Origin: Candidatus Aenigmatarchaeota archaeon
GTDB taxonomy: Archaea; Aenigmatarchaeota; Aenigmatarchaeia; GW2011-AR5
DNA: 64,000 nucleotides
Assembly (NCBI GenBank): GCA_016187335.1
Contig: JACPJW010000002.1
Coordinates: 1 to 64,000, forward strand
Direction of reading: 5' to 3'
The notes below the pieces were generated by a model, which saw nothing but the letters and a program-made list of their open reading frames with translations, did not search any database and had not been told where the DNA came from. Below are positions 7,905-53,630 of the stretch, in pieces; the stretch's first letter is position 1, and each line of letters begins with the position of its first letter. The translations under genes were made by a program, and so were the position numbers.

Positions 7905-7984
7905 TTTCCTTGAAGACCAAAGGTCTTCGAGGTCTCGGATACCTTTGGTATCCGAAGATGATGAAACTTTTTGGAAAAGTTTCA
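7905..7984. repeat. 80-nt composite three-hairpin element, copy 1 (includes family A palindrome 7962-7984)
   Basis: Aligns without gaps to 15856-15935 with compensatory stem changes; overlaps the L30 stop TGA. Confidence 0.9.
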
Positions 7985-8302
7985 CATCATCCTCTCGATC
8001 AATTTTTCTATCTCTTTTCCGCGGTAGCCGAGGTCGCCCTTGGGCCACCTGTGCTTCACCGACCTGAAGCCCTTTGCCGGCGGCTTGAGATGTGGCTTTT
8101 CCTTGAGCCTTTTTGCCATCTCATCGCCTACTTCGCCCCACGCAACGAAGTTGTCTATTTTCTTGATCATGCCCTTTATCGACTCGGTTTCCGGCAGCAC
8201 CGCAGCGCTGTGCTTCCTTTTCAGTCCGAGCATTTTCATCGTGTCCTCTAAGTCGCTGCGGACGCCCACCGTCCCTCTTATGCGGACAACTGCGTATGTC
8301 AT
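7982..8302 (-). CDS. rpl30: 50S ribosomal protein L30 (uL30), short form
   Basis: YAVVRIRGTVG...MLGLKRKH...WGE...GDLGYRG; lies between S5 and L15. Confidence 0.93.
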   Translation of the reverse strand: MTYAVVRIRGTVGVRSDLEDTMKMLGLKRKHSAAVLPETESIKGMIKKIDNFVAWGEVGDEMAKRLKEKPHLKPPAKGFRSVKHRWPKGDLGYRGKEIEKLIERMM

Positions 8303-8387
8303 ATTTTTCACTTTATCGTGGCGGAAGCAAAAGTTCATTTTCCTTTGTCATTAAACTGCAGGCATTTTCTCCCGTTTTCATATCATT

Positions 8388-9149
8388 TCATTCAGCTTCT
8401 GACGCTTCTTTAGTTCCAGCTTCGGCTGCTTCTTTCGTTCCGTTTTTGCCTGTTTCTGATTCATTTTCTTCTTCCTGCTCCTTTTCCCCGGCGGCATGAA
8501 CCTTCATTGCGTTCAGCTTCTTGAAGGCGCTGAGTATCGCAAGCACGTAATTTATGCGCGCCCTTGTGTTGCCGTAGGATTTGGACCATATGTCGCGTAT
8601 GCCCGCGAGCTGCAGTACTTTTTTTCCTTCGTCGGCAGCAGCAAGCCCGAGGCCGCGCGGGGCGGGTTTAAGAACAACTGTGACCGAGCCGGACTTGCCT
8701 CTGGCTTCCGCAGGTATTGAGTGGCTGGTGCCGCATGCGCATTCCCACGAGCCGCATCCCCTTTTTACCGGAATCACGTTCAGCTTCGCTTCGTGCGTCG
8801 CTTTCTCTATGGCGTCCCTGTGCTCAAGAGCCTGCGCTTTTCCGACGCCGATATATCCGTCGCCGTTGCCTATGACGACCATGGCGCTTATCCTGAATCT
8901 GCGGCCGGACCTGTGCATCCTTGCCGTCCTGCGCGTGGGCGTCCTCTTTATGCCGCCGCCTTTTCCGGGAGATCCCCCGATGAGTATGACTTCGCTCTGC
9001 ATGTTCGGAAGCAGCCTGTCAACTATCTCCGACTCCTTGATTTTCTTTCCGCTGGAGAATATCATGTCTATTGACGCGACGCTTCCTTCCATGACTCTTT
9101 TGCCCAGTTCCGTCTTTGGTTTCCAGTTTTCCATTGCCATTTTTATCAT
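8388..9149 (-). CDS. rps5: 30S ribosomal protein S5 (uS5)
   Basis: WKPKTELGKRV, RGCGSWECACG, PAPRGLGL. Confidence 0.97.
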   Translation of the reverse strand: MIKMAMENWKPKTELGKRVMEGSVASIDMIFSSGKKIKESEIVDRLLPNMQSEVILIGGSPGKGGGIKRTPTRRTARMHRSGRRFRISAMVVIGNGDGYIGVGKAQALEHRDAIEKATHEAKLNVIPVKRGCGSWECACGTSHSIPAEARGKSGSVTVVLKPAPRGLGLAAADEGKKVLQLAGIRDIWSKSYGNTRARINYVLAILSAFKKLNAMKVHAAGEKEQEEENESETGKNGTKEAAEAGTKEASEAE

Positions 9150-9233
9150 CCATTACGGGAAGCAAAAGTTCAGATTTTTATAAGTTAAACCTAAGCTTCC
9201 ATTCTTTCCTTAGCAATTCTTTTTTATCACAGT

Positions 9234-9365
9234 CTACTTCTTCAATATTATTCTTATCCTTGACCTTATTGCATTCTTTATTTCCTTCCTCTTTTCGTTC
9301 CTTTTTCTGAGGAAAACCCTGACGCCGCTTTTCACGTATCCCAGGACTGCAAACCTGCGTGCCAT
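9234..9365 (-). CDS. Small highly basic ORF (43 aa) coupled to L18
   Basis: MARRFAVLGYVKSGVRVFLRKRNEKRKEIKNAIRSRIRIILKK; its ATG overlaps the L18 stop (TAATG). Confidence 0.5.
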   Translation of the reverse strand: MARRFAVLGYVKSGVRVFLRKRNEKRKEIKNAIRSRIRIILKK

Positions 9366-9925
9366 TATAATTCCCCGATCCTTTTCTTTACTTCTTCAAA
9401 ATGCTGCGTGATGTTTTCCGGCTGCAGGCCGCTCTTCAGGCAGGCGGAAAACTGCTTCCTGTATTTCTCCTGATCGGTGGATTTCAGGTGCTGCGCGTAG
9501 TCGGCAATATGCTTGCCTTTAAGCCGCTCCCCGGGTATTTCCGCATCCACGGGGATGTCGATGCCAGCGTCCCTTACGCCAAGGGCTGCGGCAAAAAGCG
9601 ACTGGGATTTCTTTGACTGCAGTCCCAGGTCAGCAATCCCGCTGTCAAAGCCTTCCTTCGCCGCGGTTTTCCCGAAAAGCATTCCCGTGAGATAAGCTGC
9701 CGGCATGGACCCGGTGTGCCCTTTCCAACCGTGCTCTCTCAGGTGTTTTGAAGTGATTTCAACAAATGTCTGGTCGCCTTTTTCCGCGTACTTGACAAGC
9801 TGTATTGAAAAGCCGTTGCTGGACCTTCTGACGACTATCCTGTTCTTCCTCCCGAGCAGCATCAGAAGCCGCTTGCGGTAGTTCGTTTTCTGTTCCGCCC
9901 TTCTCCGGAATTTCATCTGGAACAT
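9365..9925 (-). CDS. rpl18: 50S ribosomal protein L18 (uL18)
   Basis: FRRRAEQKTNYRKRL, AAYLTG, GKHIADYA. Confidence 0.96.
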   Translation of the reverse strand: MFQMKFRRRAEQKTNYRKRLLMLLGRKNRIVVRRSSNGFSIQLVKYAEKGDQTFVEITSKHLREHGWKGHTGSMPAAYLTGMLFGKTAAKEGFDSGIADLGLQSKKSQSLFAAALGVRDAGIDIPVDAEIPGERLKGKHIADYAQHLKSTDQEKYRKQFSACLKSGLQPENITQHFEEVKKRIGEL

Positions 9926-10066
9926 TTTATAACCCCTCTGTCAAAATGGAATGGATTGTCAAGTTAAACGCTTGATCTCTCCACCTTCCTTTTCCCCGTT
10001 TTTGTTTTTACTTCCCACTTTATTTTTTTCAACCGATTCTTACTTTCCTTTCTGATAAATTTCCAC

Positions 10067-10531
10067 TCACTCCTTTCTTTCCTTTTCTTCCTTCAGCAGG
10101 TTGTTCCTTTCCATGTAATTCGTCAGGTGAGCCCTGCTGCGGAAAAACCCGCTCTTGCTTTTGAGATACAGCAGGCGGTACGTCCTTTTTTCAAGCCTCT
10201 GCGCTGCACGCATTTCCCTGAGCACGGACCTCAGCGTGCGTATCCGCTTTATCCAGAATTTTTTCTGGTTTGACACCGCCCCCTTTCTTGAGCCGTGCCC
10301 TTTCCTCCTTCCCTTTTTCTTCTGGAGGGCGATTTTCTTCTTCCTTGAAGCGCTGACGCCCTGTTCCTGCTCCTTCCTTATCACGCCTTCCTTGACAAGC
10401 CTCCGTATGTCAGCGGCAGTTATGGCTTCGTCTATGTCATTGACCCTTTCAGGGTCAAGCCAGACGCGCGATACGCCGCACTTCATCACGCGCGCCGCGA
10501 TTTTTTTCTGCGTCTCCAGCGACATTATCAT
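10067..10531 (-). CDS. rpl19e: 50S ribosomal protein L19e
   Basis: LETQKKIAARVMKCGVSRVW, KGRRKGHGSRKG, WIKRIR. Confidence 0.97.
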   Translation of the reverse strand: MIMSLETQKKIAARVMKCGVSRVWLDPERVNDIDEAITAADIRRLVKEGVIRKEQEQGVSASRKKKIALQKKKGRRKGHGSRKGAVSNQKKFWIKRIRTLRSVLREMRAAQRLEKRTYRLLYLKSKSGFFRSRAHLTNYMERNNLLKEEKERKE

Positions 10532-10572
10532 TCACCAGCATTCCATTGACGATTCAAATTTCATAACGTTCC

Positions 10573-10601
10573 TTTTGATGAAACTTTTTTGAAAAGTTTC
10601 A
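10573..10601. repeat. Family A palindromic element
   Basis: TTTTGA-TGAAACTTTT-TTG-AAAAGTTTCA; supplies the TGA stop of the Zn-ribbon ORF. Confidence 0.9.
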
Positions 10602-10763
10602 GTTCCAGAACTTCGCCTCGTCGTCCTTGGGCTCGGCAAGCCTTGAGATTGCAAAATCATTGAAAGCTATTTCGCATCTTTTGCAGTGGTATGTCTCCTT
10701 TGAAAGCTTTTTTCCGCCGTCCCCGCAAATGGGGCATTTTCCAGGCCCGAATGCAATGAACAT
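10599..10763 (-). CDS. Zn-ribbon microprotein (54 aa) between L32e and L19e
   Basis: Manual translation MFIAFGPGKCPICGDGGKKLSKETYHCKRCEIAFNDFAISRLAEPKDDEAKFWN; two CxxC motifs; starts 5 nt after the L32e stop. Confidence 0.7.
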   Translation of the reverse strand: MFIAFGPGKCPICGDGGKKLSKETYHCKRCEIAFNDFAISRLAEPKDDEAKFWN

Positions 10764-10768
10764 GTTTG

Positions 10769-11269
10769 TCAGCTCTTTGTCAAGTCGGAATGCTTTCTTT
10801 CGTTCTGTTTATCCCTATTGGTCTCTTCTTTGCTCTCCGTTTTTGCTTCTTCCTCTTTCTTTTCCGCTTTTGCTTTTTCCTTATTTGTAAATTTTTTCTC
10901 TTTTTTCTTCAAAATTTCTTCATGCCTTCTCTTCGCGGCATCAGCGCTTTTCATGTTCAGCAGCCTTATGTTCCGCTGCTGCGCGATTACGGCTATCTCC
11001 GCGGCTTTCCTTTTTCCGAGGGATGACGAGATTATTACCGCCCCGTCCTTCACCGAATTCATGTCCCCAACGGATTTCACAACTGTCGCCTTTATAAATC
11101 CTCTTTCAAGCCCGCGGAATTTTCTTGGAGACCTGCGGCCGATGCTGGGCATTTTCCCCGCGCCTTTCTTTGATTTTCTCAGCTTGCTCTGCTTGCCTCT
11201 GGGTTTCTGCCATCTCGTCCCCAGCTTCTTGTAGCGGAAATAATCCTGCGGCTTGAAGTCTTTGCTCAT
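10769..11269 (-). CDS. rpl32e: 50S ribosomal protein L32e with charged C-terminal extension
   Basis: FKPQDYFRYKKLGTRWQKPRGKQSKLR; ATG overlaps the L6 stop. Confidence 0.93.
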   Translation of the reverse strand: MSKDFKPQDYFRYKKLGTRWQKPRGKQSKLRKSKKGAGKMPSIGRRSPRKFRGLERGFIKATVVKSVGDMNSVKDGAVIISSSLGKRKAAEIAVIAQQRNIRLLNMKSADAAKRRHEEILKKKEKKFTNKEKAKAEKKEEEAKTESKEETNRDKQNERKHSDLTKS

Positions 11270-11808
11270 TCGGAAACACCTCGCGATGCCAGGTACACGC
11301 CGTCCTGGAAAATCCTGCGGTCCCGTTTGCTTATTTTGCACGCGTGCTCAATATTGGCCGCTGTCTGGCCGAGCTCTTCTTTGTCGGTTCCGTTGATCAC
11401 GATCTCGTCCTTGTCCAGCTTCACTTCCGCTTTGCCTACGATTTTCGCCGTGCGCGCGCCCTTCTCGCCCAAAAAGTTGCGGATCTGGACTTCGCCGTCT
11501 TTCACCGTGATGTTGATGGGAAAGTGCGTGTAAAATATCTTCATCCTGTATGCGTAACCCGAAGAGACGCCGAGGAACATGTTCTTTAAGTGCGCCTCTA
11601 TGGTGCCGACCATGGCGCGGTGCTTCTTGGTGTCCTTGCTGCTTCTGACGGCAATCTCCCGGCCCTGTTTCTCTATCACGAGCGTTCGCACGAAGCGCGG
11701 GTCGCTGAAGCTCCTTTCAAGGGAGCCCTTGCTTCCTTTCACTACAACCTTCTTTCCTTCAACGCTCACGTCAACGTGCTCCGGAACTTCTATTTTCTTT
11801 TCAATCAT
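11266..11808 (-). CDS. rpl6: 50S ribosomal protein L6 (uL6)
   Basis: YTHFPI, NFLGEK, RDRRIFQDGVY. Confidence 0.97.
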   Translation of the reverse strand: MIEKKIEVPEHVDVSVEGKKVVVKGSKGSLERSFSDPRFVRTLVIEKQGREIAVRSSKDTKKHRAMVGTIEAHLKNMFLGVSSGYAYRMKIFYTHFPINITVKDGEVQIRNFLGEKGARTAKIVGKAEVKLDKDEIVINGTDKEELGQTAANIEHACKISKRDRRIFQDGVYLASRGVSE

Positions 11809-11817
11809 GAAAATCCC

Positions 11818-12204
11818 TCAATAGATATAACCGACGATGCGGCCTCCAAGCCCTTTTTTCTGGGCTTCTTTCTGGCTCATCACTCCCCTGGGGGTTGAAA
11901 CGATGAGCATGCCGAAATCCTTTGCCGGCAAAAAGCGGGTTTCCCATTTTTCGTATTCGTTCTTCTTCACGGCAAACCTCGGGCGCACGGCGCGCGACTT
12001 GTTTATTTTTCCGGCGAGGCTCACGCTGAACGTGCCTGATTTTCCGTCGTCTATGAATTCAAAGCCGCCTATGTAGCCCGCTTTTTGCATGACCAGGAGC
12101 ACGTTCTTCACTGTGTCCGACGCAGGGACTACGCAGCTCTTCTTCCCGCTTTTCTCGGCGTTGTCCACCGAATACAGCACATCAACCAGAATGTCGTGTC
12201 TCAT
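11818..12204 (-). CDS. rps8: 30S ribosomal protein S8 (uS8)
   Basis: GKINKSRAVRPRF, RFLPAKDFG, VSTPRGVMS. Confidence 0.97.
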   Translation of the reverse strand: MRHDILVDVLYSVDNAEKSGKKSCVVPASDTVKNVLLVMQKAGYIGGFEFIDDGKSGTFSVSLAGKINKSRAVRPRFAVKKNEYEKWETRFLPAKDFGMLIVSTPRGVMSQKEAQKKGLGGRIVGYIY

Positions 12205-12223
12205 TTCTCATCACTCATATAAT

Positions 12224-12670
12224 TTAATTGAAAAGCATCTCATCCATCTGCTTGCAATCATGCATGTCTAATATTTTAGAAACACCGACAAGTTCAAGGT
12301 TTGGAAGACTAATGTCATTCAATTCTCTTGCATCCGTTACCTCCATGAATTCCGCCAGCATTCTTTCTGAAATTTCCGGGCTAAAGGAATGTGCGGATAT
12401 CACTTGCTTCGGTTGTGGTTTCCTGACAAACTTACCTAGCATGTAAAGAGCAATTTTTTCTTCTGTGAAATAAGTAAAAGAAAGTATCGAAAAAGGTTTA
12501 CCGCCGCCATCTACTATCCTTGCTCGTGGTTCAATCTGAATTCTACTGATGTAGTTGCCTATTTTCGAAGGGTCTGATATGACAACAGATTTGCCTTTTA
12601 CGTAAATCATTTTTTCTTGTAGTAAGTCTTCTTTACTTACCTTTACCGGAAAGCTAAATTCGTATTCCAT
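12224..12670 (-). CDS. Hypothetical protein inserted between S14 and S8
   Basis: 148 aa, more AT-rich than its neighbours, fills the gap with an SD-like GGTGAG; no family recognised. Confidence 0.75.
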   Translation of the reverse strand: MEYEFSFPVKVSKEDLLQEKMIYVKGKSVVISDPSKIGNYISRIQIEPRARIVDGGGKPFSILSFTYFTEEKIALYMLGKFVRKPQPKQVISAHSFSPEISERMLAEFMEVTDARELNDISLPNLELVGVSKILDMHDCKQMDEMLFN

Positions 12671-12676
12671 TGTTTC

Positions 12677-12835
12677 TCACCTGTATTTCCTGAAGCCTAT
12701 CTCCGCTGCGACCTCGCGGAAGCACCGGCGGCAGTACATAAGCCCGTATTTCCTTATCACTCCGCGGAACACGCCGCATCTGACGCACTTGTGCGCGCCC
12801 TTGCCGATTTTTCTTTTCACTTTCTTGTTCCTCAT
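12677..12835 (-). CDS. rps14: 30S ribosomal protein S14 type Z (uS14)
   Basis: CVRCG...[15 protein letters not shown]...GFRKY. Confidence 0.96.
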
Positions 12836-12849
12836 AATTTCCGCCTTGA

Positions 12850-13365
12850 TTATTCCTCTATTGTTACGCCGAAATTCTCTTTCATGAATTCCACGGCTTC
12901 CTCTTTTTTTATAACGTGGTTCTTTCCTATCCTTGACGCGATCTTCCTTTTCTTCACGCGGTATCCGGGCCTTTCCAGGGTGACGCAAACGTCAAATCCC
13001 AGCACGCCTATTTTCGGGTCGTAGTCCATCTGTGGAACGTCTATGTACTCCTTGACCCCAAAGGACACGTTGCCTGTCTGGTCAAAACTGCCTTTCATGA
13101 GCCTGTTCTCCTTGGCCTCAAGCATCCGGCGCAGGAATTCCTCCCTGCCTTTCCGTATCGTGACCTTGCATCCGATGGGCCTGTTTTTCGCGACGCCGAA
13201 AGTGGAGCGCTTGTGCGTCTTTGTTATGACCGCCGTTGTCCCTGTTACCCTTTCAAGTATTGTTTTCGCCGTTTCCGTGCTTGTTTTTGTTCCGCACCCT
13301 ATGTTCAGCGTCACTTTCTCCAGCCTTATCCTTCTCATCTTGTTCTCCATTTCCAACACCGTCAT
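12850..13365 (-). CDS. rpl5: 50S ribosomal protein L5 (uL5)
   Basis: [38 protein letters not shown]. Confidence 0.97.
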
Positions 13366-13404
13366 CGGTTTCGTTCACACAAGCTTTTTTGAAACACAAT
13401 TTTT

Positions 13405-14106
13405 TCATTGGAGTTTCAGGTTTGCTAATGATATCAGCGGCTTGTCTTTGCCCACGACAAAGACGTAATCCTTCGGCACGGGAACATCCTTGCCGTCCAC
13501 GCTCACAACCACGATGTTCGGATGCGAGCTTTTCGTTATTATTATCTTTTTTATCGTAACGAAAGCGCCCGTGTTTTTGCCGTGCGCAATGAGGGCAACG
13601 GAGTCTTTCTCGAATCTGACGACGCTCTTTATTTTGTTCTCCATATCCATGGCTATGACATCGCCTGTTTTGTAATCGTCCTTTTCCACGGCAATGTTGC
13701 TGCCGTCGTGGAGGTTGAGCTGTATTTTCCTGTTCTTGAGATGAACCTTGTTCTCCACCCTCAGCAGCCTGAAAGCTTCCTTCCTGTCTATGCTCACCAG
13801 ATGCAGGCCCTTTCTGCCGGCAAGTATCCTGTAAACGTCGTCGCCTATCTCGATTATGTCCATGAATCCCACAGGAAACCCGTGGTCTTTCCTTGCCCTG
13901 CCGTTCACCTTCACGACGCCCTTGTTGAGGATAGCTCTGGCTTCCTTCAGCGTTTCCGCGTGCTTCAAAACATCTCTAAGCACCATTCCGAGCGGCATCG
14001 AAGTCTTCAGCGAATGCGGCCCGGGCTTCGGCATTATCACGTATTTCTTCGTCTTCGTTTCTATCGGCCAGAAACTCGGCGCTGCGAGGCGTTTCAGTTT
14101 GCTCAT
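13405..14106 (-). CDS. rps4e: 30S ribosomal protein S4e
   Basis: LKRLAAPSFW, PKPGPHS, QLNLHDG, DYVFVVG. Confidence 0.97.
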   Translation of the reverse strand: MSKLKRLAAPSFWPIETKTKKYVIMPKPGPHSLKTSMPLGMVLRDVLKHAETLKEARAILNKGVVKVNGRARKDHGFPVGFMDIIEIGDDVYRILAGRKGLHLVSIDRKEAFRLLRVENKVHLKNRKIQLNLHDGSNIAVEKDDYKTGDVIAMDMENKIKSVVRFEKDSVALIAHGKNTGAFVTIKKIIITKSSHPNIVVVSVDGKDVPVPKDYVFVVGKDKPLISLANLKLQ

Positions 14107-14162
14107 GGTTTACCACCTTTTGCCAAAGCGGAAGGATGCGTTCCGTTCTTTTTTCTCTCCAT

Positions 14163-14642: not shown

Positions 14643-14643
14643 A

Positions 14644-15045: not shown

Positions 15046-15064
15046 ATCAGCATCACACCATATA

Positions 15065-15127
15065 TTTTTGATAGAACTTTTTGTTAAAAAGTTCTTTTTG
15101 ATAGAACTTTTTGTTAAAAAGTTCTAT
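15065..15127. repeat. Family A element, exact 30-nt tandem duplication
   Basis: (TTTTTGATAGAACTTTTTGTTAAAAAGTTC)x2 followed by TAT; overlaps the S17 stop TAG. Confidence 0.95.
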
Positions 15128-15471: not shown

Positions 15472-15487
15472 TTTTCACACCGTAATA

Positions 15488-15531
15488 TTTTTCTTTCCAT
15501 GCATGCTTTCTTTTCCAAAAAGAAAGGATGC
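15488..15531. repeat. Family B palindromic element (intergenic counterpart of the tRNA-Ile D-loop intron core)
   Basis: 44 nt matching 26120-26161 with four substitutions and one 2-nt indel; on the minus strand it begins at the G of the rnp1 stop TAG. Confidence 0.9.
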
Positions 15532-15821: not shown

Positions 15822-15855
15822 TCTGCATCAACGCTTTAGTTTTCATTGACGGTCG

Positions 15856-15935
15856 TTTCCTTGAAGAGCAAAGCTCTTCGAGGTCCCGAAAAACTTCGTT
15901 TTTCGAGGATGATGAAACTTTTTTGAAAAGTTTCA
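15856..15935. repeat. 80-nt composite three-hairpin element, copy 2
   Basis: Gap-free paralogue of 7905-7984; overlaps the SUI1 stop TGA. Confidence 0.9.
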
Positions 15936-16465: not shown

Positions 16466-16480
16466 GCTCAGCACCACTCC

Positions 16481-16510
16481 AAACTTTTTAACAAAAAGTT
16501 TGATCAAAAA
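16481..16510. repeat. Family A element, reverse orientation
   Basis: AAACTTTTT-AAC-AAAAAGTTT-GATCAAAAA. Confidence 0.9.
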
Positions 16511-16516
16511 TTTTTC

Positions 16517-17954: not shown

Positions 17955-18010
17955 TTTTTGATTAAACTTTTTTTTAAAAATTTTTTGATTAAACTTTTCT
18001 GAAAAGTTTA
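17955..18010. repeat. Family A element, imperfect tandem pair
   Basis: TTTTTGATTAAACTTTTTTTTAAAAATT followed by TTTTGATTAAACTTTTCTGAAAAGTTTA; overlaps the S19 stop TAA. Confidence 0.88.
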
Positions 18011-18397: not shown

Positions 18398-18686
18398 GTT
18401 AAGCACCCAGATCTTTTTCATAAGTCTCCAAGTCTTTTTCAGCAGTTTCAAGCACGCCAGGTAATGAGTCTCCTCTTGTTAGGACGTAAACTCTACCTTC
18501 TTTGACATAAAACAATGCCGGTATCCCATCTCTGCTTGCGATAAATGATGACAATCCAGACTCGTCCTGATGGGCCCTTGCAAGCGCATAAAATTCCTCC
18601 GTTGAAAATCTTGTAAGGAATGCTCCAAATCTTCTTCTTAGTTCTATCATCGTGCCTTCCTCTTTTTTTTGGCCATGTTAAGCACC
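18386..18686. repeat. 22-bp direct repeat (18386-18407 and 18665-18686) duplicating the S19 RBS and start
   Basis: TTTTTTGGCCATGTTAAGCACC present twice, flanking the 83-aa ORF. Confidence 0.9.
18399..18650 (-). CDS. Hypothetical protein inserted between L2 and S19
   Basis: 83 aa; ends GGT GCT TAA inside the repeat. Confidence 0.7.
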
Positions 18687-18971
18687 AATTTTTTGTTTAG
18701 ATTTACTGTTCCTGAAACACCCTATTGCATAATTTATTTCATCTTCGCTTGGAATACGCGGATTATAGCCCAGTTTGTCTGTAGCTTCTGCGTCCATAAC
18801 GACTTGGCCGTCTTCCAGTCGGAAGTTTACCCTCATAACCGCAATTTCTTCTCCTTTTTTGATTTCGTATGCAGTGCAAATGCCCAGTTCAGGTATATGT
18901 CCTACTATATCCAAAAATTCCTGTTCTGCCATACCAGTCTGATACCCTTTCAATGGATAAGACATTCCCAT
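18678..18971 (-). CDS. Hypothetical protein inserted between L2 and S19
   Basis: 97 aa from an ATG overlapping the L2 stop (TGATG); ends GGT GCT TAA inside the repeat. Confidence 0.7.
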   Translation of the reverse strand: MGMSYPLKGYQTGMAEQEFLDIVGHIPELGICTAYEIKKGEEIAVMRVNFRLEDGQVVMDAEATDKLGYNPRIPSEDEINYAIGCFRNSKSKQKIGA

Positions 18972-20355: not shown

Positions 20356-21168
20356 TCACCGTTCTTTTCCTTTTGATAAAACTTTTTTTGAAAAGTTGTC
20401 GAGTGCCGATTTTGTCATCACGACAAGGCGCCCTGCGTTTGCGCCCGGAGCGAGGTGCTCGGCATTTAATTCGTCAGCACTGACGGCGTCGACGCCCGGT
20501 ATGTTTGCAGCGGCTTTGAGCAGCGCGCATTTTTTCGCGGCAATGAGCAGCGGGCCTTTCTTCCTTTTGTATTTCCTGCCCCGCATCTTCCCCCGTCCTG
20601 CCCTCACCTTTTTCTCGGCGCAGCGCTCCAGTTCTTTTTCCAGGCCGAGCGAAGCCAGGATTTTTCTCGCTTCCTTTGCCTTGCTTACGTTCTCGAAGTC
20701 ATCGACAATAACCAAAGGGACATCGCCGGCATATTCGTGTCCTCTTGCCGCGACAAGATCTTTCATCGCTGCTGCCGACAGCGCGGAATGCAGCGCAAGC
20801 AGCTTTTCTTTCTTATTCACATCCTGGGCCCAGTTCTTCTCCGCTTTTGGCGGGTGAGCCCTTCTTCCCTTGACCGCCTGCGGAGAGAAGCGCCCGCGGA
20901 ACGCCATGTACCCCGCGCCCTTTCCGTGTATGCGCGGCAATCTTGACATCTCCTTGTTCATCATCGCGAACCTGTATTTCCTGCGGCCGTGGTAGTGCGC
21001 GCTTGTTCTTTTTCCCGCCAGCGGGTCGGTGCCGTACCTTTGCCTTTTTTTCGACTGCAATGACAGCACGACGCGCTTTATGACGTCCGGGCGGTATGCA
21101 GTTGCGAATACCTGCGGCAACTCTATTTCACCGACAGCTTTTCCGGACAAATCGTATAGTTTAGGCAT
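20356..21168 (-). CDS. rpl4: 50S ribosomal protein L4 (uL4)
   Basis: YRPDVIKR, PQAVKGRRAHPPKAEK, LAPGANAGRL. Confidence 0.97.
   Translation of the reverse strand: MPKLYDLSGKAVGEIELPQVFATAYRPDVIKRVVLSLQSKKRQRYGTDPLAGKRTSAHYHGRRKYRFAMMNKEMSRLPRIHGKGAGYMAFRGRFSPQAVKGRRAHPPKAEKNWAQDVNKKEKLLALHSALSAAAMKDLVAARGHEYAGDVPLVIVDDFENVSKAKEARKILASLGLEKELERCAEKKVRAGRGKMRGRKYKRKKGPLLIAAKKCALLKAAANIPGVDAVSADELNAEHLAPGANAGRLVVMTKSALDNFSKKVLSKGKER
20371..20398. repeat. Family A element inside the L4 C-terminal coding sequence
   Basis: TTTTGATAAAACTTTTTTTGAAAAGTTG, translated on the minus strand as NFSKKVLSK. Confidence 0.8.
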
Positions 21169-25238: not shown

Positions 25239-25266
25239 TTTTGATCGAACTTTTTGGAAATGTTCA
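25239..25266. repeat. Family A element, one mismatch
   Basis: TTTTGATCGAACTTTTTGGAAATGTTCA. Confidence 0.75.
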
Positions 25267-25808: not shown

Positions 25809-25901
25809 TGGAACGCATTAAACAGAAAACCTATTTAAAATTAGACTGGATTTTATTTCGTGATTGCAGCGTGATTAGTTCTTTTCCGCCAGCGCTTTTT
25901 C

Positions 25902-25931
25902 TTTTTGATCAAACTTTTTCCTAAAAAGTTT
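25902..25931. repeat. Family A element just downstream of tRNA-Ile
   Basis: TTTTTGATCAAACTTTTT-CCT-AAAAAGTTT. Confidence 0.9.
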
Positions 25932-25943
25932 GAAAGGGCTGGA

Positions 25944-26181
25944 TGGGACGGACCCGATTTTCATGAACTTTCCCTTTTGATTGGACTTTTTGGAAAAGTT
26001 CAATTTGAACGGGCGACCTTCCGATTATCAGTCGGATGCTCTAGTTGCCCCGCCCTTTCCTTGTTTTCTTTCCGTGCATTCTTTTTCTTTCCGTGCATTC
26101 TTTTTCTTTCCGTGCATTCTTTTTCTTTCCGTGCACGCTTTCTTTTCTAAAGAAAGGGTGCCCAGGCTAAGCTACCGTCCC
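25944..26181 (-). tRNA. tRNA-Ile: tRNA-Ile(GAT) with two non-canonical introns: D-loop 19/20 (26045-26161) and T-loop 59/60 (25958-26003)
   Basis: Acceptor GGGACGG/CCGTCCC, anticodon arm TCCGA-CTGATAA-TCGGA, T-arm GCCCG-TTCAAAT-CGGGT. The T-loop intron has a perfect BHB (TTCA/TGAA, AAT bulges); the D-loop intron has a near-BHB. Confidence 0.92.
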
Positions 26182-46982: not shown

Positions 46983-47008
46983 GAATACATTAATGAGCTC
47001 TATTTTAT

Positions 47009-47557: not shown

Positions 47558-47642
47558 AATAGAAATCTTCAGGTGATAGTTATTAAATGTTACGTTTTGT
47601 TAGGGTGGTAAAAAATTTATCCTTTGCGCAACAGTTATATTC

Positions 47643-48341
47643 ATGCCCCAATTCTCTTTGGTGGTTCTGGAAAGCAGAAAGGAAGCAGCAGACACCATGG
47701 CGATAAAGTTTGAAAAGCCGCAGATAGATTACAAGCCCGGCCAGTACATGCTTTACGAGCTGCCTGTGCAGGACCCGGAAGGCCCGACGCGTTCCTTCTC
47801 GCTTGCCTCGTCGCCCACCGAAAGCTTCCTGATGCTTACAACAAAACTTACAGGAAGCGTATTCAAGAGCAAGCTGGCGCAGATGAAAAAAGGCGACACC
47901 ATAAATGCAAGCGGACCTTCAGGACGCTTTGTTCTGCAGGACTCGCCAAAACATCTTTTCATCGCCGGCGGCATCGGGATAACGCCGTTCCGCTCCATGA
48001 TAAAGTACGCTGTTGACACAGAACTGCAAGAAAAGATAACGCTGCTTTATTCAAACAAAGTTCCGGAGGAGATAGCTTTTTTCGATGAGCTTGATAAATG
48101 GCAGAATCAGAACAGATTCTTGCGCGTTGTCCACACGATAACTAAGCCCGAGGAAAGCGAGGAGCAATGGAACGGACGAGTTGGCAGGATTGATGCCGCA
48201 CTGATAAAAGAGCATCTGGACGCTGAAACTATTGTTTACGTATGCGGACCGCCGGGGATGGTTGACGCCATGGTTGCCGTGCTCAAGGACATAGGCGTGC
48301 CTGAGAAAAGAATCAAGGCCGAAAGATTTGAGGGGTACTGA
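47643..48341 (+). CDS. FAD/NAD(P)-binding oxidoreductase (FNR family)
   Basis: YKPGQY, RSFSLASSP, GPSGRF, IAGGIGITPFRSM, YVCGPPGM. Confidence 0.93.
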   Translation: MPQFSLVVLESRKEAADTMAIKFEKPQIDYKPGQYMLYELPVQDPEGPTRSFSLASSPTESFLMLTTKLTGSVFKSKLAQMKKGDTINASGPSGRFVLQDSPKHLFIAGGIGITPFRSMIKYAVDTELQEKITLLYSNKVPEEIAFFDELDKWQNQNRFLRVVHTITKPEESEEQWNGRVGRIDAALIKEHLDAETIVYVCGPPGMVDAMVAVLKDIGVPEKRIKAERFEGY

Positions 48342-48390
48342 TATAATTTTAAAAGGCTTCATGCTTCGGATATTGTAAAGTGATTATAAC

Positions 48391-48582
48391 TTGCACTGGT
48401 TAAAACCTGGTTATGAACTTAGGGAGGGAGATTGGGCAATTACTAGAGATGGTCATGTACTGGTTGTTGAAAGATTCGTCATTACCCCGAAAAGAGGAAC
48501 GGTAGAATGCACCATTTACCCGAAAAACGAACTTCCTTACTGGCCTGATGAAATCGCTGTTTATATAAGGGTACGCGGCTGA
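48391..48582 (+). CDS. Hypothetical small protein
   Basis: 63 aa ORF with a non-ATG start. Confidence 0.4.
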   Translation: MHWLKPGYELREGDWAITRDGHVLVVERFVITPKRGTVECTIYPKNELPYWPDEIAVYIRVRG

Positions 48583-48625
48583 CGAATCATTTAATAATCA
48601 ATCATTCATAATAGAATTGATAATC

Positions 48626-48844
48626 ATGTTCGGCTTCTTGGAAAAGATAAAGCGCTTGTTCAGGAAAAAGGAAGAGCCTCAGCAGCCGCAGCAACCTGTC
48701 GAGATAAAAGAAGTGAAAGAACCTCAAAAGGAGCAACAAAAACAGAGGAAAGACCCCGACCGCCCGGAAAAGAACTGCCCCCACTGCGGCGCGCCGAATG
48801 ACACCTTCGTGCATGTCTGCTGGCTCTGCAAGAAGGATATATGA
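48626..48844 (+). CDS. Small protein with C-terminal Zn finger
   Basis: CPHCGAPN...CWLC. Confidence 0.7.
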   Translation: MFGFLEKIKRLFRKKEEPQQPQQPVEIKEVKEPQKEQQKQRKDPDRPEKNCPHCGAPNDTFVHVCWLCKKDI

Positions 48845-49076
48845 CACAAATTATTTCTGCGCGGCTTTTTCCTCAACCAAGACGGCGTTTAATACCACGT
48901 TCTGCTCGGAACTGGCAGCATCTTTCTGACAAGCATTTATCATTTAACGCTTTTATTTGTAGGCGTTGATGGGTCGTTGATATGCCGTTGATATTGTATT
49001 TATTGAGAGCGGTAGAAAATATTCTGAATCTAACACACTGCGATATTTTTATAAACATTACGCTACAGCTCTTATC

Positions 49077-50132
49077 ATGGTTCTCGAGGTTATAAAAGCT
49101 GTTCCTTACGGAGATTGGATTCTTGCAGCGGCGATAGTGGCTGTTTTTGTTGTCGCATCAAAGCTATTTGTGATATTTCTTGAGCGTGTAGTGCTCCGCA
49201 TCACTTCAAAGACAAAAACGGCATTGGACGACGCGATATTGAAAGCCGTGAAGAAGCCCCTGTACATCGGGATAATTCTTGCCGGCGTTTTTCTTGCCAT
49301 CGATTCGCTAAATTATGTCGATATTTATCTGGACGCCATAAAGGCGGGGTTCACCGTCATATGGGTACTTCTCGGCGCGTACACAGCAAGCAGGGTGCTA
49401 AAAGCTTTCTTCTCTTGGTACGCTACGGAAATAGCGCAAAAAACCAAAACGAAATTAGACGAAACAATGATGCCCATAATAAGGAAGATATTGAACGTGT
49501 TCATCTACGCCATTGCCTTGATGATAATACTCAAAGGTTTCGGCGTAGAGATCACGCCATTAGTCGCAGGTCTCGGCATAGGCGGCTTGGCCATTGCGCT
49601 CGCCCTGCAGGATTCTTTGGCGAACCTGTTTTCAGGCGCGTTCATGGTCTCGGACAAGATAATAAAAGCCGGGGATTTCATAGAGCTCGAGGGCGGGATT
49701 AAGGGCTTTGTCGAAGAAATAGGCTGGAGAACCACAAAGGTAAGGACGCTCCCCAACAACCTTGTCATAATACCAAACTCAAAAATTGCAAACAGTACTA
49801 TAACAGACTACAGTGCTCCGATAGAGGAGATGTCTGTTGTAGTTCCAGTGGGGGTCGCCTACGATTCCGATTTAGGAAAGGTGGAAAAGATGACTATAGA
49901 GGTTGCAAAAGACACATTAAAAAATGTTGCGGGCGGCAAGAAGGATTTCGAGCCTTTCATACGCTACAATGCATTCGGCGATTCCAACATAAACTTTTCT
50001 GTTATACTGAGGGTGGAGAAGTTTGTCGACCAGTACCTTGTGGTGCACGAATTCATAAAGGCCCTGAAGAAGAGATACGACGAGGAGGAAATAGAGATAT
50101 CGTTCCCTGTGAGGAAGATTGTGCAAAAGTAG
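49077..50132 (+). CDS. mscS: Small-conductance mechanosensitive channel
   Basis: AGLGIGGLAIALALQD, GDFIEL, IGWRTT, IPNSKI, ISFP. Confidence 0.94.
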   Translation: MVLEVIKAVPYGDWILAAAIVAVFVVASKLFVIFLERVVLRITSKTKTALDDAILKAVKKPLYIGIILAGVFLAIDSLNYVDIYLDAIKAGFTVIWVLLGAYTASRVLKAFFSWYATEIAQKTKTKLDETMMPIIRKILNVFIYAIALMIILKGFGVEITPLVAGLGIGGLAIALALQDSLANLFSGAFMVSDKIIKAGDFIELEGGIKGFVEEIGWRTTKVRTLPNNLVIIPNSKIANSTITDYSAPIEEMSVVVPVGVAYDSDLGKVEKMTIEVAKDTLKNVAGGKKDFEPFIRYNAFGDSNINFSVILRVEKFVDQYLVVHEFIKALKKRYDEEEIEISFPVRKIVQK

Positions 50133-50217
50133 AGTTTGTTTAAGTTATTTCTCTTTTTAGTATTACGCAAAGCGTCCGCTTCAATCTCAGTCCGCAAAAC
50201 CTCGGCTTGACTTCTTT

Positions 50218-51873
50218 CTACACACTTGTGTTTTTCCTGAGCTCGAACCACATGAAGCGGTGGCCGGTCAGCGTAAAGGAGTAAGGCTCTTTCTTAATAG
50301 CTGGAAAATTGGTGTTGCCGAACATCTCAACCGGAATCATGCCGGCGTATTGGCCAAGATTTAGCTCAAAATACTGAGCGTGCCTTGACAGGTTAAAGAT
50401 GCATAAAATTCTTTCATCATCGTATTCTCTTATGAACGCCAGTATTTTTGTGTTGGAAGGCTTCAGGATTTCTATATAGCCCCTACCAAATGCTTTTTTT
50501 TGCTTGCGGATTCCGATGACATTTTTCATCCAGTTCAGAAGCGAGTAAGGAAGCCTTTTTTCGGCGTACACATTTATTGCTTCATAATGATAATTTGGGT
50601 TTGTGATAACAGGCAAATAAAGCTGTTCTGAGTCGGCGGAAGAGAACCCTGCATTCTTGTCAGGTGACCACTGCATGGGAGTTCTGACGCCATTGCGGTC
50701 TCCCAGAAAGATGTTGTCACCCATGCCAAGCTCGTCGCCGTAATAAATTAATGGACTTCCAGGCAGGGAAAACAACAAGCCATAAAGCAGCTCAATTCTA
50801 AGGCGGTCGTTGTCAGCCAGCGGCGCAAGCCTTCTTCTGATGCCGAGGTTGAACCGCATCTTTGGGTGCTTTGCGTATTCGCGCCACATTACGTCCCTTT
50901 CCTCGTCGTTAGTCATCTCTAATGTGAGTTCATCGTGGTTTCTTAGAAATATGGCCCACTGGCAGGCTTCCGGTATGCTCTTTGTCTGGTTAATGATATC
51001 CGCTACGGGCTGATAGTGCTCTTTTGCAAGAGCAATAAATATCCTTGGCATGAGCGGAAAGTTAAACAGCATATGAAATTCGTCGCCGTTGCCGAAATAA
51101 GAAATGGCTTCCGTGGGCCATTGGTTTACCTCTGCAAGAAGTATTCTACCAGGATATTCCTCATCAAGCATTTTCCGGCCTTCTCTGAAGAATAAGTGCG
51201 TTTCAGGCAGGTTTTCGCTGCTTGTGCCGTCCCTGTCAAAAATGTAAGGCACTGCATCACACCTGAACCCGTCAATTCCCGTATCAAGCCAGAAGCGCAT
51301 CACATTTTTCATCTCTTCCCTTACTTCCGGATTATCGTAGTTCAGGTCAGGCTGGTAACCATAGAATCTGTGCCAGTAATACGCCTTGGCTTCGTCGTCC
51401 CACGCCCAGTTGGACTTTTCCGTATCGCTAAAAATAATCCTTGCCGAAATGTTCTTTTTGTTGGTGTCAGACCAGATGAACCAGCTCTTTTTCTGCGACT
51501 CTGGATGGCTGCGCGCTTCTTTGAACCACGAATGCTCACTCGATACGTGATTGAAGACAAGGTCTACAATTACTTTGATCCCTCTCTTGTGAGCCTCGTG
51601 GACAAACACTCTGAAGTCTTCTATTGTGCCAAGATCGGGATGGATGCTGTAGAAGTCGGAAACGTCATAGCCGTCATCCTTGAGCGGGGATGGGTAGAAC
51701 GGGAGTAGCCATATGCAATCTACATCCAGCCACTGGAGATAGTCCAGCTTCGTAGTAAGCCCTTTGAAATCCCCTACGCCATCACCATTGCTGTCACAAA
51801 ATGTTCTTACATGCAGCTCGTAGAATACAACATCCTTGTACCAAAAGTTGTCGCTTTTGTTGCCGGCTTCCAT
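50218..51873 (-). CDS. treS: Trehalose synthase / maltose alpha-D-glucosyltransferase (GH13)
   Basis: WYKDVVFYELHV, DGFRCDAVPY, LAEVNQWP, FLRNHDELTLEM, GDRNGVRTPMQW. Confidence 0.95.
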   Translation of the reverse strand: MEAGNKSDNFWYKDVVFYELHVRTFCDSNGDGVGDFKGLTTKLDYLQWLDVDCIWLLPFYPSPLKDDGYDVSDFYSIHPDLGTIEDFRVFVHEAHKRGIKVIVDLVFNHVSSEHSWFKEARSHPESQKKSWFIWSDTNKKNISARIIFSDTEKSNWAWDDEAKAYYWHRFYGYQPDLNYDNPEVREEMKNVMRFWLDTGIDGFRCDAVPYIFDRDGTSSENLPETHLFFREGRKMLDEEYPGRILLAEVNQWPTEAISYFGNGDEFHMLFNFPLMPRIFIALAKEHYQPVADIINQTKSIPEACQWAIFLRNHDELTLEMTNDEERDVMWREYAKHPKMRFNLGIRRRLAPLADNDRLRIELLYGLLFSLPGSPLIYYGDELGMGDNIFLGDRNGVRTPMQWSPDKNAGFSSADSEQLYLPVITNPNYHYEAINVYAEKRLPYSLLNWMKNVIGIRKQKKAFGRGYIEILKPSNTKILAFIREYDDERILCIFNLSRHAQYFELNLGQYAGMIPVEMFGNTNFPAIKKEPYSFTLTGHRFMWFELRKNTSV

Positions 51874-51971
51874 GAATTACATACATCAGCTTGTTGCTTA
51901 AGAAGTTAATGCTACTGTATGAGGATAGAATTATTTATGACCTTCCACATGCGCCTACACTTCTTCTGTTT

Positions 51972-52367
51972 TTAACCCTTTTGACTATCCTTTTCCTCTA
52001 CTATCACCGCGTTGACGACGCCGTGCTGCCCGGGCCTTGAAGTTACCCTGGCTTTGCCAAGCTCCGTCTGCACGACTGCTCCCTTTGTTATGATATTGCG
52101 CCTCACGAACTGGGAATCCGCCTTGTTTTCAACAACGCTCGTTATCTTCACTTTTTGCGCCTTGCCTTTAACAACGATATTAGCAACATTGGAACTCAGC
52201 GCCATGATTTTCTCGTTGCCTCCCATGGAGCGGATTTTCCTTTTCTTGTATTCTCCTACGTGGGCAGGGACGAAATCGCGGCCGCGCTGGTACCGCTTTT
52301 TCTTTGCGTGCCTTTTCAGCAGGCCGCCTGTTTTCTTCCTGTTGCTTCTTAATTGCCATTGCGTCAT
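51972..52367 (-). CDS. rps8e: 30S ribosomal protein S8e
   Basis: QWQLRSNRKKTGG, RRNIITKGA, VTSRPGQHGVVNA. Confidence 0.97.
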   Translation of the reverse strand: MTQWQLRSNRKKTGGLLKRHAKKKRYQRGRDFVPAHVGEYKKRKIRSMGGNEKIMALSSNVANIVVKGKAQKVKITSVVENKADSQFVRRNIITKGAVVQTELGKARVTSRPGQHGVVNAVIVEEKDSQKG

Positions 52368-52391
52368 TTTGAAAACCTCTGTTTTTCGAAA

Positions 52392-52491
52392 GAAGTGTCA
52401 TTCTAATGAACACTTCATGATTAATCACTCCTGTCAAAACGGAGCGGAAAGTTGTTTCAGAAAAGATCCGGGCTTTTCTTTCCGTTTTTGA
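52392..52491. repeat. Hairpin-rich segment upstream of S8e
   Basis: GAAGTGT/ACACTTC hairpin; TCAAAACGGA...TCCGTTTTTGA enclosing GAAAAG/CTTTTC. Confidence 0.55.
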
Positions 52492-52581
52492 TATAGAGTC
52501 GTCTCCATGTCTTTCTTTCGCAAACTTATTTAAACATACTTACATCTATAAACGTATCTTTTATGGAGGTTTTAGGATTTT

Positions 52582-52809
52582 ATGGAAAGACCGATAGACG
52601 TTCTTAACAACGCGAAAGGCAAGAGGGTTCTGATAAAGCTGAAGAAAGGAACGGAAATCTCAGGCATCCTGCATGCAATGGACCTGCATCTCAACATGTG
52701 GCTTGAGGACGCCGAGCAGGTAAGCGAGGAAAAGAAAGTGAAGCTGGGGACCCTTCTGGTGCGCGGAGACAACATAATTTATGTTTCTCCGGCCGAGAAA
52801 GCGGATTAA
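52582..52809 (+). CDS. Sm-like archaeal protein (SmAP/Lsm)
   Basis: RPIDVL, GILHAMDLHLNMWLEDA, LLVRGDNI; upstream of L37e. Confidence 0.95.
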   Translation: MERPIDVLNNAKGKRVLIKLKKGTEISGILHAMDLHLNMWLEDAEQVSEEKKVKLGTLLVRGDNIIYVSPAEKAD

Positions 52810-52918
52810 GAAAAACGAAAAGACAAAGCCGTTTGATTGAAAGACGAAACCTGAGTCTTTGTTTCCGCTTTAGTGAAAGGGAAATGCACGCTCACATGCA
52901 GTTTTCAGAGTGATAAAA

Positions 52919-53164
52919 ATGAAAGGCACGCGCAGCTTCGGCAAGCACAACAAGATTGTTCACATACGATGCCGAAGGTGCGGCCGCCATTCCTTCCACG
53001 AGCGCCTCGGCAAGTGCAGCGCGTGCGGATACCCGCGGGCAAAGATAAGAAAGGAAGCATGGCGCTGGAAGCCTGTGAACCGCGCAGCCCGCCGCTTCAT
53101 TAAGCCGAAGCACCAGAAGCCGAAGACGAAATACATTGGCAGGCAGACAGCGAAGATAAGATAA
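52919..53164 (+). CDS. rpl37e: 50S ribosomal protein L37e
   Basis: KGTRSFGK...HIRCRRCGRHSF...CSACGY. Confidence 0.95.
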   Translation: MKGTRSFGKHNKIVHIRCRRCGRHSFHERLGKCSACGYPRAKIRKEAWRWKPVNRAARRFIKPKHQKPKTKYIGRQTAKIR

Positions 53165-53166
53165 AT

Positions 53167-53361
53167 ATGCCAAAACTGTCCAGGATCGACAAGCTTGTTC
53201 TGAAGGCAGGAAAGCAGAGGAAGAAAGCGGGAAGATTCTGTCCCGTCTGCAAGGGCACTGACGTTGTGCTTGACGCAAGGATGGAAATGATCTGGTATCG
53301 GTGCCGTAAATGCTCACACAGCGCCGCGTCGTTCCCGGAGAAAGCCGTTAATTTTGGTTAA
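53167..53361 (+). CDS. Small Zn-ribbon protein
   Basis: CPVC and CRKC motifs; 64 aa; starts 2 nt after L37e. Confidence 0.7.
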   Translation: MPKLSRIDKLVLKAGKQRKKAGRFCPVCKGTDVVLDARMEMIWYRCRKCSHSAASFPEKAVNFG

Positions 53362-53380
53362 ACTTTTTGGAAAAGTTTAA
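53352..53380. repeat. Family A element
   Basis: TTTTGG-TTAAACTTTT-TGG-AAAAGTTTAA; overlaps the TAA stop at 53359-53361. Confidence 0.88.
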
Positions 53381-53409
53381 TTTATAAGCCGGCGCGACAA
53401 GGGATAATC

Positions 53410-53595
53410 ATGAACCCGTCAACCCTGGAGAAATTAAGCGCCCTGTCGTTCCTGCTTATCGGCATTTCTTTGCTTTTGTTCGCCATGACGCTGGTAGGCG
53501 TAAACACGCAGTTTTTGGGGATTGCAATGGTCGTTTCGGGCATAGTTGCTGTCATAACAGGCGCGTTTTTGTGGCTTGACAGCAGGAAGCAGTAG
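53410..53595 (+). CDS. Small two-TM membrane protein
   Basis: 61 aa, two hydrophobic helices. Confidence 0.7.
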   Translation: MNPSTLEKLSALSFLLIGISLLLFAMTLVGVNTQFLGIAMVVSGIVAVITGAFLWLDSRKQ

Positions 53596-53630
53596 ACCCT
53601 TTGCAACTTTTCAGAAAAGTTGCATCAAAA
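53595..53630. repeat. Hybrid family A/B element
   Basis: GACCCTTTGCAACTTTTCAGAAAAGTTGCATCAAAA; the first 11 nt equal 53753-53763 in the tRNA-Lys intron; begins at the G of a TAG stop. Confidence 0.85.

Follow-up and report, generated by a model that had tools for sequence, protein, structure and literature searches.

We analysed a 64,000-nucleotide (nt) window, that is, the first 64 kb of contig JACPJW010000002.1 (C1), from a Candidatus Aenigmatarchaeota archaeal genome assembled in two contigs (1.01 Mb, 47% G+C, 90.8% complete). Its minus-strand ribosomal-protein cluster (7.3–21.3 kb) and further loci in the window carry a short, oriented palindromic repeat, hereafter family A, which we propose is a non-autonomous mobile hairpin element with a one-sided tag, at a rough probability of 0.6. 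The evidence laid out below comes from the pairing of its stem, from the comparison of occupied gene junctions with those of relatives and from its distribution across Archaea and Bacteria.

Family A is an abundant, oriented hairpin repeat

An earlier sequence-only reading of the window had listed 14 copies at 12 loci, and a copy is indeed present at every one of these sites. The core AAACTTTT-N1-5-AAAAGTTT yielded seven exact matches in the window versus none in 100 shuffles, and a slightly looser core palindrome matched 103 times genome-wide. Exact matches to the oriented half AAAGTTNNATCAAAA numbered 99 in the genome versus 0 for a control pattern read backwards, whereas the slightly shorter AAAGTTNNATCAAA, with one mismatch allowed, was found 142 times. 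A chance origin of these matches is excluded, and the genome-wide motif scan suggested by that reading thus places ~100–140 copies in 1.01 Mb. Anchored patterns were used for the census because a short-profile nhmmer search proved insufficiently sensitive.

For the alignment, 91 strict copies were oriented by their tails. The unit reads NN-AAC-T4-7-loop-A4-7-GTT-N'N'-ATCAAAA (28–30 nt), the opposite strand displaying TTTTGAT followed by the hairpin. Conservation sets in abruptly two bases ahead of AAC and continues to the end of ATCAAAA, beyond which a weak purine-rich nGGAAA is discernible; the upstream flank holds <0.3 bit per position, leaving the 3' ATCAAAA as the sole conserved flank. Thirteen copies bear the minor tail ACCAAAA and ten bear ATCATC. 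The loop is asymmetric, with C or A first, and the unit is therefore oriented throughout. Tandem copies follow each other head-to-tail with a period of 27–30 nt.

The two variable outer positions of the stem are Watson-Crick paired in 87 and 90 of the 91 copies, respectively, versus 36 and 25.5 expected under independence, with three and four pair types in use, whereas the third position out pairs at chance level. Outer pair type is independent of loop type, so the pattern does not stem from a few subfamilies. These positions were likewise paired in 134 and 129 of 135 copies taken from other genomes. The arm covariation initially noticed in the window therefore extends to a larger alignment, and the hairpin stem must pair. 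Mismatches revealed no wobble preference (eight G.U on the tail strand and nine on the other), which fits a constraint exerted at the DNA level or one that is strictly Watson-Crick; an attempt to tell which strand folds from G.U versus A.C mismatches likewise gave no signal. In Rfam, only tRNA scored above the gathering threshold, and sub-threshold matches were to microRNA and plastid models, at chance level.

Copies in the ribosomal-protein operon are lineage-specific

We compared the orthologous 14-kb operon among relatives, the identities of L4, S19, L29, SUI1, S17 and L30 being supported by Pfam. This comparison uncovered ten copies in the genome under study, two in the congener G001 (0.5-Mb assembly; ~72% DNA identity) and 0–1 in four other genera. 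At the sites occupied here, relatives have junctions that either overlap (ATGA, TGATG) or are spaced by ~20 nt or less; S17 and L14, for instance, overlap at ATGA in three relatives. Reciprocally, G001 carries a copy after L14, at a junction that is empty in our genome. Among 80 related metagenome operon contigs we found a single variant copy, in which the stem change is compensated (ACC...GGT) and the tail is unaltered. As judged from these alignments, the operon copies are shown to be lineage-specific insertions, and the role of mobile unit, one of several that the sequence-only reading had entertained, gains direct comparative support from the operon junctions of relatives.

Family A is patchily distributed across two domains

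At least one exact half-site was detected in 181 of 371 genomes of the phylum, with counts of 99 in our genome, 28 in the congener and 0–18 in all others (controls, 0–2). We further searched the full pattern, comprising 21 fixed bases, in a 596-Gb collection and recovered at least 119 stretches versus one or two chance matches predicted under uniform base composition, an estimate that becomes somewhat higher given A/T-rich genomes. Archaeal carriers among the matches listed were Methanosarcina, Methanocaldococcus, Methanobrevibacter, Methanocellales, ANME-1 and several DPANN lineages, and bacterial ones were Oscillospiraceae, Acutalibacter, Ruminococcus, Defluviitaleaceae, Aminicenantes, Cloacimonadota and Oligoflexales; several of these carriers are cultured isolates. 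The exact pattern occurred 26 times in Acutalibacter, 28 times in an Oscillospiraceae metagenome-assembled genome (MAG), 44 and 100 times in two Methanosarcina and 529 times in an Aminicenantes MAG (control, 0). Across 41 Methanosarcina genomes the count ranged from 0 to 100, with zero in 22 and 21–100 in nine (control, 0). Collectively, these data reveal a family that is patchy, rises to high copy number in bursts and is present in both Archaea and Bacteria.

The bacterial copies lie between housekeeping genes, with a covarying G+C hairpin ahead of them and CTTT behind; in Aminicenantes, the unit resides within a ~130-nt repeat. Methanosarcina copies often form tandem arrays of identical 55–110-nt units. 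In one Methanosarcina sp. (G375, loci L386–L388), tandem units of 83–110 nt comprise a family A unit and a paralogous hairpin, AAGCCTTTT-aca-AAAAGGCTT, tailed by GAGCGAA. Variants with compensated stems, AGC...GCT (G012) and ACC...GGT (L057), point to a wider class of the same build. Viral contigs gave only single, chance-level matches and one near-copy among 80 loci, and a plasmid collection gave zero matches to the unit. In the open-licence papers searched we found no description of the sequence, or of such an archaeal or Methanosarcina repeat.

Proposed mobilisation and the points that weigh against it

We propose that in the host's genus the unit multiplied to ~100–140 copies per Mb and entered gene junctions, and that the operon copies were inserted into junctions like those that overlap or are very short in relatives. 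A trans-acting protein would recognise the paired hairpin together with the fixed tail, probably on single-stranded DNA, given the Watson-Crick arms, the occurrence of the unit in bacteria, which are not known to have bulge–helix–bulge (BHB) splicing, and the likeness to repetitive extragenic palindromic (REP) sequences and to IS200/IS605 ends.

Several results weigh against this proposal, first of all those of the search for a mobiliser. Y1_Tnp (PF01797) returned no match in our genome, whereas control genomes did match, and neither TnpB (PF07282), the reverse transcriptase RVT_1 nor Cas1 was found in it. No copy lay within 1.5 kb of the Y1 loci fetched from four other carrier genomes, and no Y1 gene was adjacent to copies in five. 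Among the 41 Methanosarcina genomes, the number of copies is unrelated to that of Y1 genes, the Y1-richest genomes having no copies. The absence of a cognate transposase from the window, stated by the sequence-only reading, is thus borne out, and its proposed search for HUH/Y1 transposases flanked by the motif ended empty-handed both in our genome and beside copies elsewhere. Furthermore, the longest words shared by the two flanks of a copy, scored as possible target-site duplications, equalled those of a swapped-flank control, and no conserved target sequence was found around the aligned copies. S19/L22, the only junction occupied in both congeners, departs from the lineage-specific pattern, and gene calls beyond the window come from a crude ORF (open reading frame) finder of our own (965 genes, 78% coverage). 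The bias of copies towards sense strands, stop codons and the ribosomal-protein cluster also tells against mobility and is weighed below.

Long flank repeats derived only from tandem copies and from a few 16-nt duplications. Two copies, in the regions of C2:738998 and C2:79105 on the second contig, are flanked by 16-nt direct duplications of neighbouring sequence, in one case of the first 16 nt of a tRNA gene; the bulk of copies lack such a duplication.

Several candidate cognate genes and mechanisms were rejected. A bifunctional-nuclease-domain gene flanked by inverted copies was judged housekeeping because it is single-copy and present in 23 of 24 family genomes whatever their copy number. 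The remaining genes flanked in this way are of ordinary types (a ParA-like ATPase, a RibD C-terminal/DHFR-like reductase and a metallopeptidase), and the neighbours of bacterial and other archaeal copies, considered for the same role, were all housekeeping. Rep-Arvir origin hairpins are unrelated to the unit. In an intrastrand triplex (Holder 2015), as traced by eye, the tail A-run laid along the stem A-run would cross the paired GTTNN segment.

Family A forms the core of tRNA introns

The copy at 25975 constitutes the core of a 46-nt BHB intron (25958–26003, minus strand) inserted in a tRNA T-loop. In this intron the T-stem serves as outer helix (5 bp) and TTCA/TGAA as central helix, each bulge has 3 nt and the inner helix spans 11 bp. 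The latter is formed by the left arm and a second right arm, GGGAAAGTTCA, the first right arm not being the partner; unlike the first arm, the intron-specific second arm GGAAAGTT does use U.G wobble. About nine copies in the genome, 25975 included, share this build, and they lie in stable RNA genes, whereas 66 of the 91 strict copies have neither the second arm nor a GGAA remnant of it. In five other genomes of the same family and order, most of the copies read lie in tRNA genes, at the D-loop, anticodon loop or T-loop, or just after such genes, and in the host's order the unit is mainly found inside tRNA/rRNA introns.

The intron-bearing tRNA itself (~25930–26055, minus strand; anticodon loop CUGAUAA) was missed by both ARAGORN and the Rfam tRNA model. 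Its acceptor stem pairing is not clean as read and may be broken by a second small interruption; the gene is flanked by a leader/trailer helix, GAAAGGGC/GCCCUUUC.

These copies raise the possibility, doubtful on balance, that the unit is a cross-domain mobile element and itself the seed of archaeal BHB introns. It would insert without regard to site, whether at gene junctions, within coding frames or in stable RNA genes, and a copy in a tRNA or rRNA gene would survive only if joined by a second right arm, GGAAAGTTNN, and by a short stretch complementary to the exon. Together these would turn the left arm into the inner helix of a BHB, allowing the splicing endonuclease to remove the copy. If true, this would offer a concrete route for the arrival of archaeal introns; that of Asgard tRNA introns is still called open (2026 preprint, 10.64898/2026.10.13.758758).

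Contig C2 also holds 18 LAGLIDADG domain matches (for example at 557691–558266, 639002, 278932, 209021 and 241283), which group into about a dozen places and are unusually many for 1 Mb. Several fall in ORFs of 800–1400 aa and are likely inteins, several are free-standing (220–300 aa), and some free-standing ORFs lie near intron-type copies. LAGLIDADG was rejected as a general mobiliser, the matches being inteins or free-standing homing endonucleases.

Sense bias, stop codons and a possible selected RNA signal

Out of 142 copies, 113 lie between genes according to our own calls. Gaps between co-directional, divergent and convergent genes hold 0.14, 0.18 and 0.14 copies each, respectively. However, 77 copies in co-directional gaps are sense and 15 antisense, which may reflect selection at the RNA level, and the sense:antisense ratio is 67:9 beside minus-strand genes versus 11:8 beside plus-strand genes. 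The sense share thus amounts to 88% near minus-strand and 58% near plus-strand genes, with totals of 107 minus and 35 plus copies; an absolute strand preference, perhaps linked to replication, is superimposed on the gene-orientation bias.

All six stop-codon overlaps claimed by the sequence-only reading (L30, Zn-ribbon, S17, SUI1, S19 and 53361) are correct, and the enrichment that it anticipated at gene ends holds genome-wide: a same-strand stop codon starts 2–5 nt before AAC in 18 of 91 copies, and an opposite-strand one in a single copy. Stop density reaches ~4.5 per position at this distance versus ~0.4 per position further upstream, that is, about ten times higher. Similarly, several copies start 2–4 nt past a tRNA 3' end, and 13 copies lie near intact T-arm motifs versus 1.3 for random positions, again a tenfold excess; sampled regions holding the signal recognition particle (SRP) RNA and 5S rRNA also contain copies. 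The ribosomal-protein region harbours ten strict copies versus 2.6 expected (P = 4e-4, ~4-fold). Because the ribosomal-protein copies directly follow or share stop codons and are mostly sense, the polycistronic transcript would contain them as A/U-rich stem-loops.

These biases are what would be predicted if family A were a selected RNA signal, with the stem-loop at the stop codon and the AUCAAAA tail acting in mRNA to protect the 3' end of the upstream cistron, to mark a processing site or to uncouple or lower translation, and with copies recruited to highly expressed operons and stable-RNA genes. Predicted hairpin energies, reaching −7 to −18 kcal/mol, are consistent with such a role, for which there is a precedent in E. 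coli REPs, whose presence within 15 nt of a stop codon lowers translation (PMC12306157). However, copies are not kept at the orthologous junctions of the congener, the four other genera or the 80 contigs; their density does not differ between divergent, convergent and co-directional gaps; the sense strand displays no G.U tolerance; 15–20% of copies are antisense, and some copies lie in frame within genes; and the identical unit is found in bacteria inside a different composite repeat. We therefore consider selection for an RNA function an unlikely origin of the family, retained as the foremost rival because it would predict precisely the sense bias, the abutment of stop codons and the excess at highly expressed loci.

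Under the mobile-element proposal, the sense bias could arise either because the coding strand of busy genes is exposed and targeted or because harmful antisense copies are lost, and effects on expression, such as lost translational coupling or a stem-loop at the stop codon, would be side effects rather than the reason for the copies. By analogy with REPs, mobility and RNA signalling need not be mutually exclusive.

One further in-frame copy, at C2:888710–888737, resides in a multicopper oxidase ORF (888082–889236), where it encodes part of the linker between two cupredoxin domains and keeps the frame open.

Terminator, promoter and mRNA intron alternatives

Oligo-T is the intrinsic termination signal of archaea, and the T-run and A-run arms of family A place oligo-T on both strands. 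A bidirectional transcription terminator or attenuator would also explain why copies start right behind stop codons and tRNA 3' ends, and Methanosarcina copies display T5 and T7 on opposite strands. In our genome, however, the commonest sense-strand T-run is only T4, and ten copies occur within a single operon, in which essential genes further downstream must still be transcribed. Moreover, convergent gaps are not richer in copies (0.14 per gap), and relatives manage without them at the same junctions. Such a function is accordingly a poor explanation, well below a selected RNA signal in our ranking.

Still harder to sustain is a promoter with symmetric TATA and transcription factor B recognition (BRE) elements, or an operator for a dimeric transcription factor. 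For some genes the palindrome centre does fall ~24–26 nt ahead of the start codon, as it does for the 5' end of one tRNA, and many copies are followed by a Shine-Dalgarno sequence and ATG in the same orientation. Nevertheless, the genome's own upstream signal is TTTAAA/TTTATA (also CTTAAA), ~30–40 nt before starts, and of the 428 upstream regions belonging to genes with a preceding gap of 70 nt or more, only 17 hold a copy. A palindrome bound by protein would not be expected to vary in complementary fashion at its free positions, transcription starting ~25 nt past the centre would fall at or beyond the Shine-Dalgarno sequence, relatives' genes overlap at these junctions, and copies also lie inside tRNA genes and coding frames. 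We dropped this explanation after the upstream word analysis and the operon junction comparison.

The weakest alternative, to which we give hardly any credence, is that the operon copies are BHB introns cut from ribosomal-protein mRNA by the tRNA splicing endonuclease: the unit is the core of true tRNA BHB introns here and in other genera, but a geometry scan of all copies gave 35 matches versus 35 with swapped flanks, all strong cases being stable-RNA copies with the second right arm and only one, chance-level match falling among ribosomal-protein copies, and removal would delete the stop codons that copies contain. We found no indication of copies being spliced from ribosomal-protein mRNA.

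Copies in the window and their neighbours

The copies in the window are collected in Table 1. Copy 20371–20399, together with the bases beyond it, encodes the final 13 residues of L4 (NFSKKVLSKGKER). The 64-aa Zn-ribbon ORF at 53167–53361 runs through the tail complement and is ended by TAA 53359–53361 in the arm; since this stop is read from the tail side, the copy is antisense to the gene.

Table 1. Family A copies and one associated stop codon in the 64-kb window
Position	Strand	Copy type	Context
7956–7984	minus	variant tail ATCATC	L30 stop TGA 7982–7984 within left arm
10573–10600	minus	canonical	outer stem pairs from TGA 10599–10601, stop of 54-aa Zn-ribbon protein
15066–15095 and 15096–15125	minus	two exact copies	tandem, 30-nt period
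15124–15126	minus		S17 stop TAG, inside left arm of first tandem copy
15907–15935	minus	variant tail ATCATC	SUI1 stop TGA 15933–15935 in left arm
16480–16509	plus	canonical	antisense to operon; between S3 stop and L29 start
17956–17985	minus	degenerate second copy	S19 junction
17983–18010	minus	canonical	left arm overlaps S19 stop TAA 18008–18010
20371–20399	minus		within L4 frame, 3' end
25239–25266	minus	one arm mismatch	sense; ~45 nt upstream of start of PKD-domain protein (MAEIII..., likely true start)
25903–25932	minus	canonical	just 3' of tRNA gene; CCCTTTC before, GAAAGCG..CGGAAAG after
25975–26002	minus	one arm mismatch	core of tRNA intron 25958–26003
53352–53379	minus	tail ACCAAAA	antisense to 64-aa Zn-ribbon ORF 53167–53361
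53603–53630	plus	canonical; outer pairs GC/GC	GACCCTTTGC before, GAAAGCGTCTGCGGAAAG after

A second motif, GAAAGCG-(4 variable, often self-complementary)-CGGAAAG, is often found within a few bases after family A copies, at 25875–25900 and 53636–53655 in the window and at many sites on contig C2; it may correspond to another repeat family listed by the sequence-only reading. Copies with the ATCATC tail are followed by composite hairpins on the minus strand, at ~7885–7955 and ~15835–15906, arranged as a 7–8 bp hairpin of variable sequence with pairing kept, GAxCC, a conserved hairpin CGAAGANC...GNTCTTCR and AGGAAA; a fourth hairpin, of the ...TTCTCAG... type, spans 7885–7905. About ten such composites occur in the genome, none of them with an Rfam match. 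Gaps of the ribosomal-protein operon (18398–18970, 12205–12850 and others) additionally contain small extra ORFs of 200–650 nt that differ between our genome and each relative, which points to a rapid turnover of putatively inserted genes inside this core operon.

Implications and comparison with known systems

If mobile as proposed, family A would represent a third kind of tag-plus-hairpin repeat, present in both domains and without a recognisable transposase, that in one tiny archaeon has recently split tightly coupled ribosomal-protein genes. Should one element also seed introns, it would link the spread of transposase-less REP-like repeats with the arrival of archaeal protein-spliced introns. 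Tractable hosts exist, as some cultivable Methanosarcina carry 30–100 copies and congeners none. On the practical side, copies mislead gene callers: frames are extended through them, and ARAGORN overlooked the interrupted tRNA.

Tagged palindromic repeats are known mainly from bacteria, and the spread of REPs is tied to RAYT transposases. REPs are 20–40 nt hairpins with a one-sided GTAG or CGTC tag and tens to hundreds of mostly extragenic copies; their termini often supply a stop codon, a few copies are intragenic, abundance differs sharply between close relatives, and the CGTC superfamily has no known transposase (Di Nocera et al. 2013, PMC3733652). Family A resembles them in size, one-sided tag, number of extragenic copies (99–142, with 113 of 142 between genes), stop-codon supply and variation between relatives. 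On the other hand, its tag is TTTTGAT/ATCAAAA instead of GTAG/CGTC, its stem is A/T-rich, and it occurs in both domains and also as an archaeal intron core. Unlike in REPINs and BIMEs, family A neighbours within 300 nt are direct in 36 cases and inverted in three, and there is no RAYT. The REP likeness noted by the sequence-only reading thus stands as regards dispersed, extragenic, lineage-specific copies with a one-sided tag, stop codons and a few in-frame cases, whereas membership in REP/RAYT or IS200/IS605 does not, with no Y1 or TnpB, no GTAG/CGTC and a head-to-tail arrangement. Because Y1/RAYT, TnpB, reverse transcriptase, Cas1 and REPIN doublets are all lacking, family A is therefore best described as REP-like in behaviour and not as a REP/RAYT member.

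Like the ends of IS200/IS605 elements, family A joins a hairpin to a short fixed single-strand motif, and its Watson-Crick arms would suit recognition of single-stranded DNA; unlike them, it has no ORF between ends and no tnpA or tnpB in the genome. ISDra2 inserts next to TTGAT, whose resemblance to the family A tag we offer as a lead.

In Thermoproteales, unrelated tRNAs carry related intron sequences at several positions, implying movement of intron sequence between genes (Fujishima et al. 2010, summarised in PMC4090602). Family A shares with these paralogous BHB introns the presence of a common intron sequence in different tRNA genes, but here the shared part is a defined 28-nt unit that lies mostly outside stable RNA genes and is also bacterial.

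Small mobile repeats of bacteria have been reviewed by Delihas (PMC2229807). A DDE-type miniature inverted-repeat transposable element was rejected, as terminal inverted repeats with a target-site duplication are not a feature of family A, and so was a CRISPR repeat, given tandem copies without spacers here, identical inter-unit sequence in Methanosarcina and no Cas1. Rickettsia palindromic elements, of ~100–150 nt, are not known outside one genus and can sit in frame inside protein genes. Family A is similar to them in being a short palindrome found both in frame and between genes with no transposase of its own, and differs in its length of 28–30 nt and in its spread across domains.

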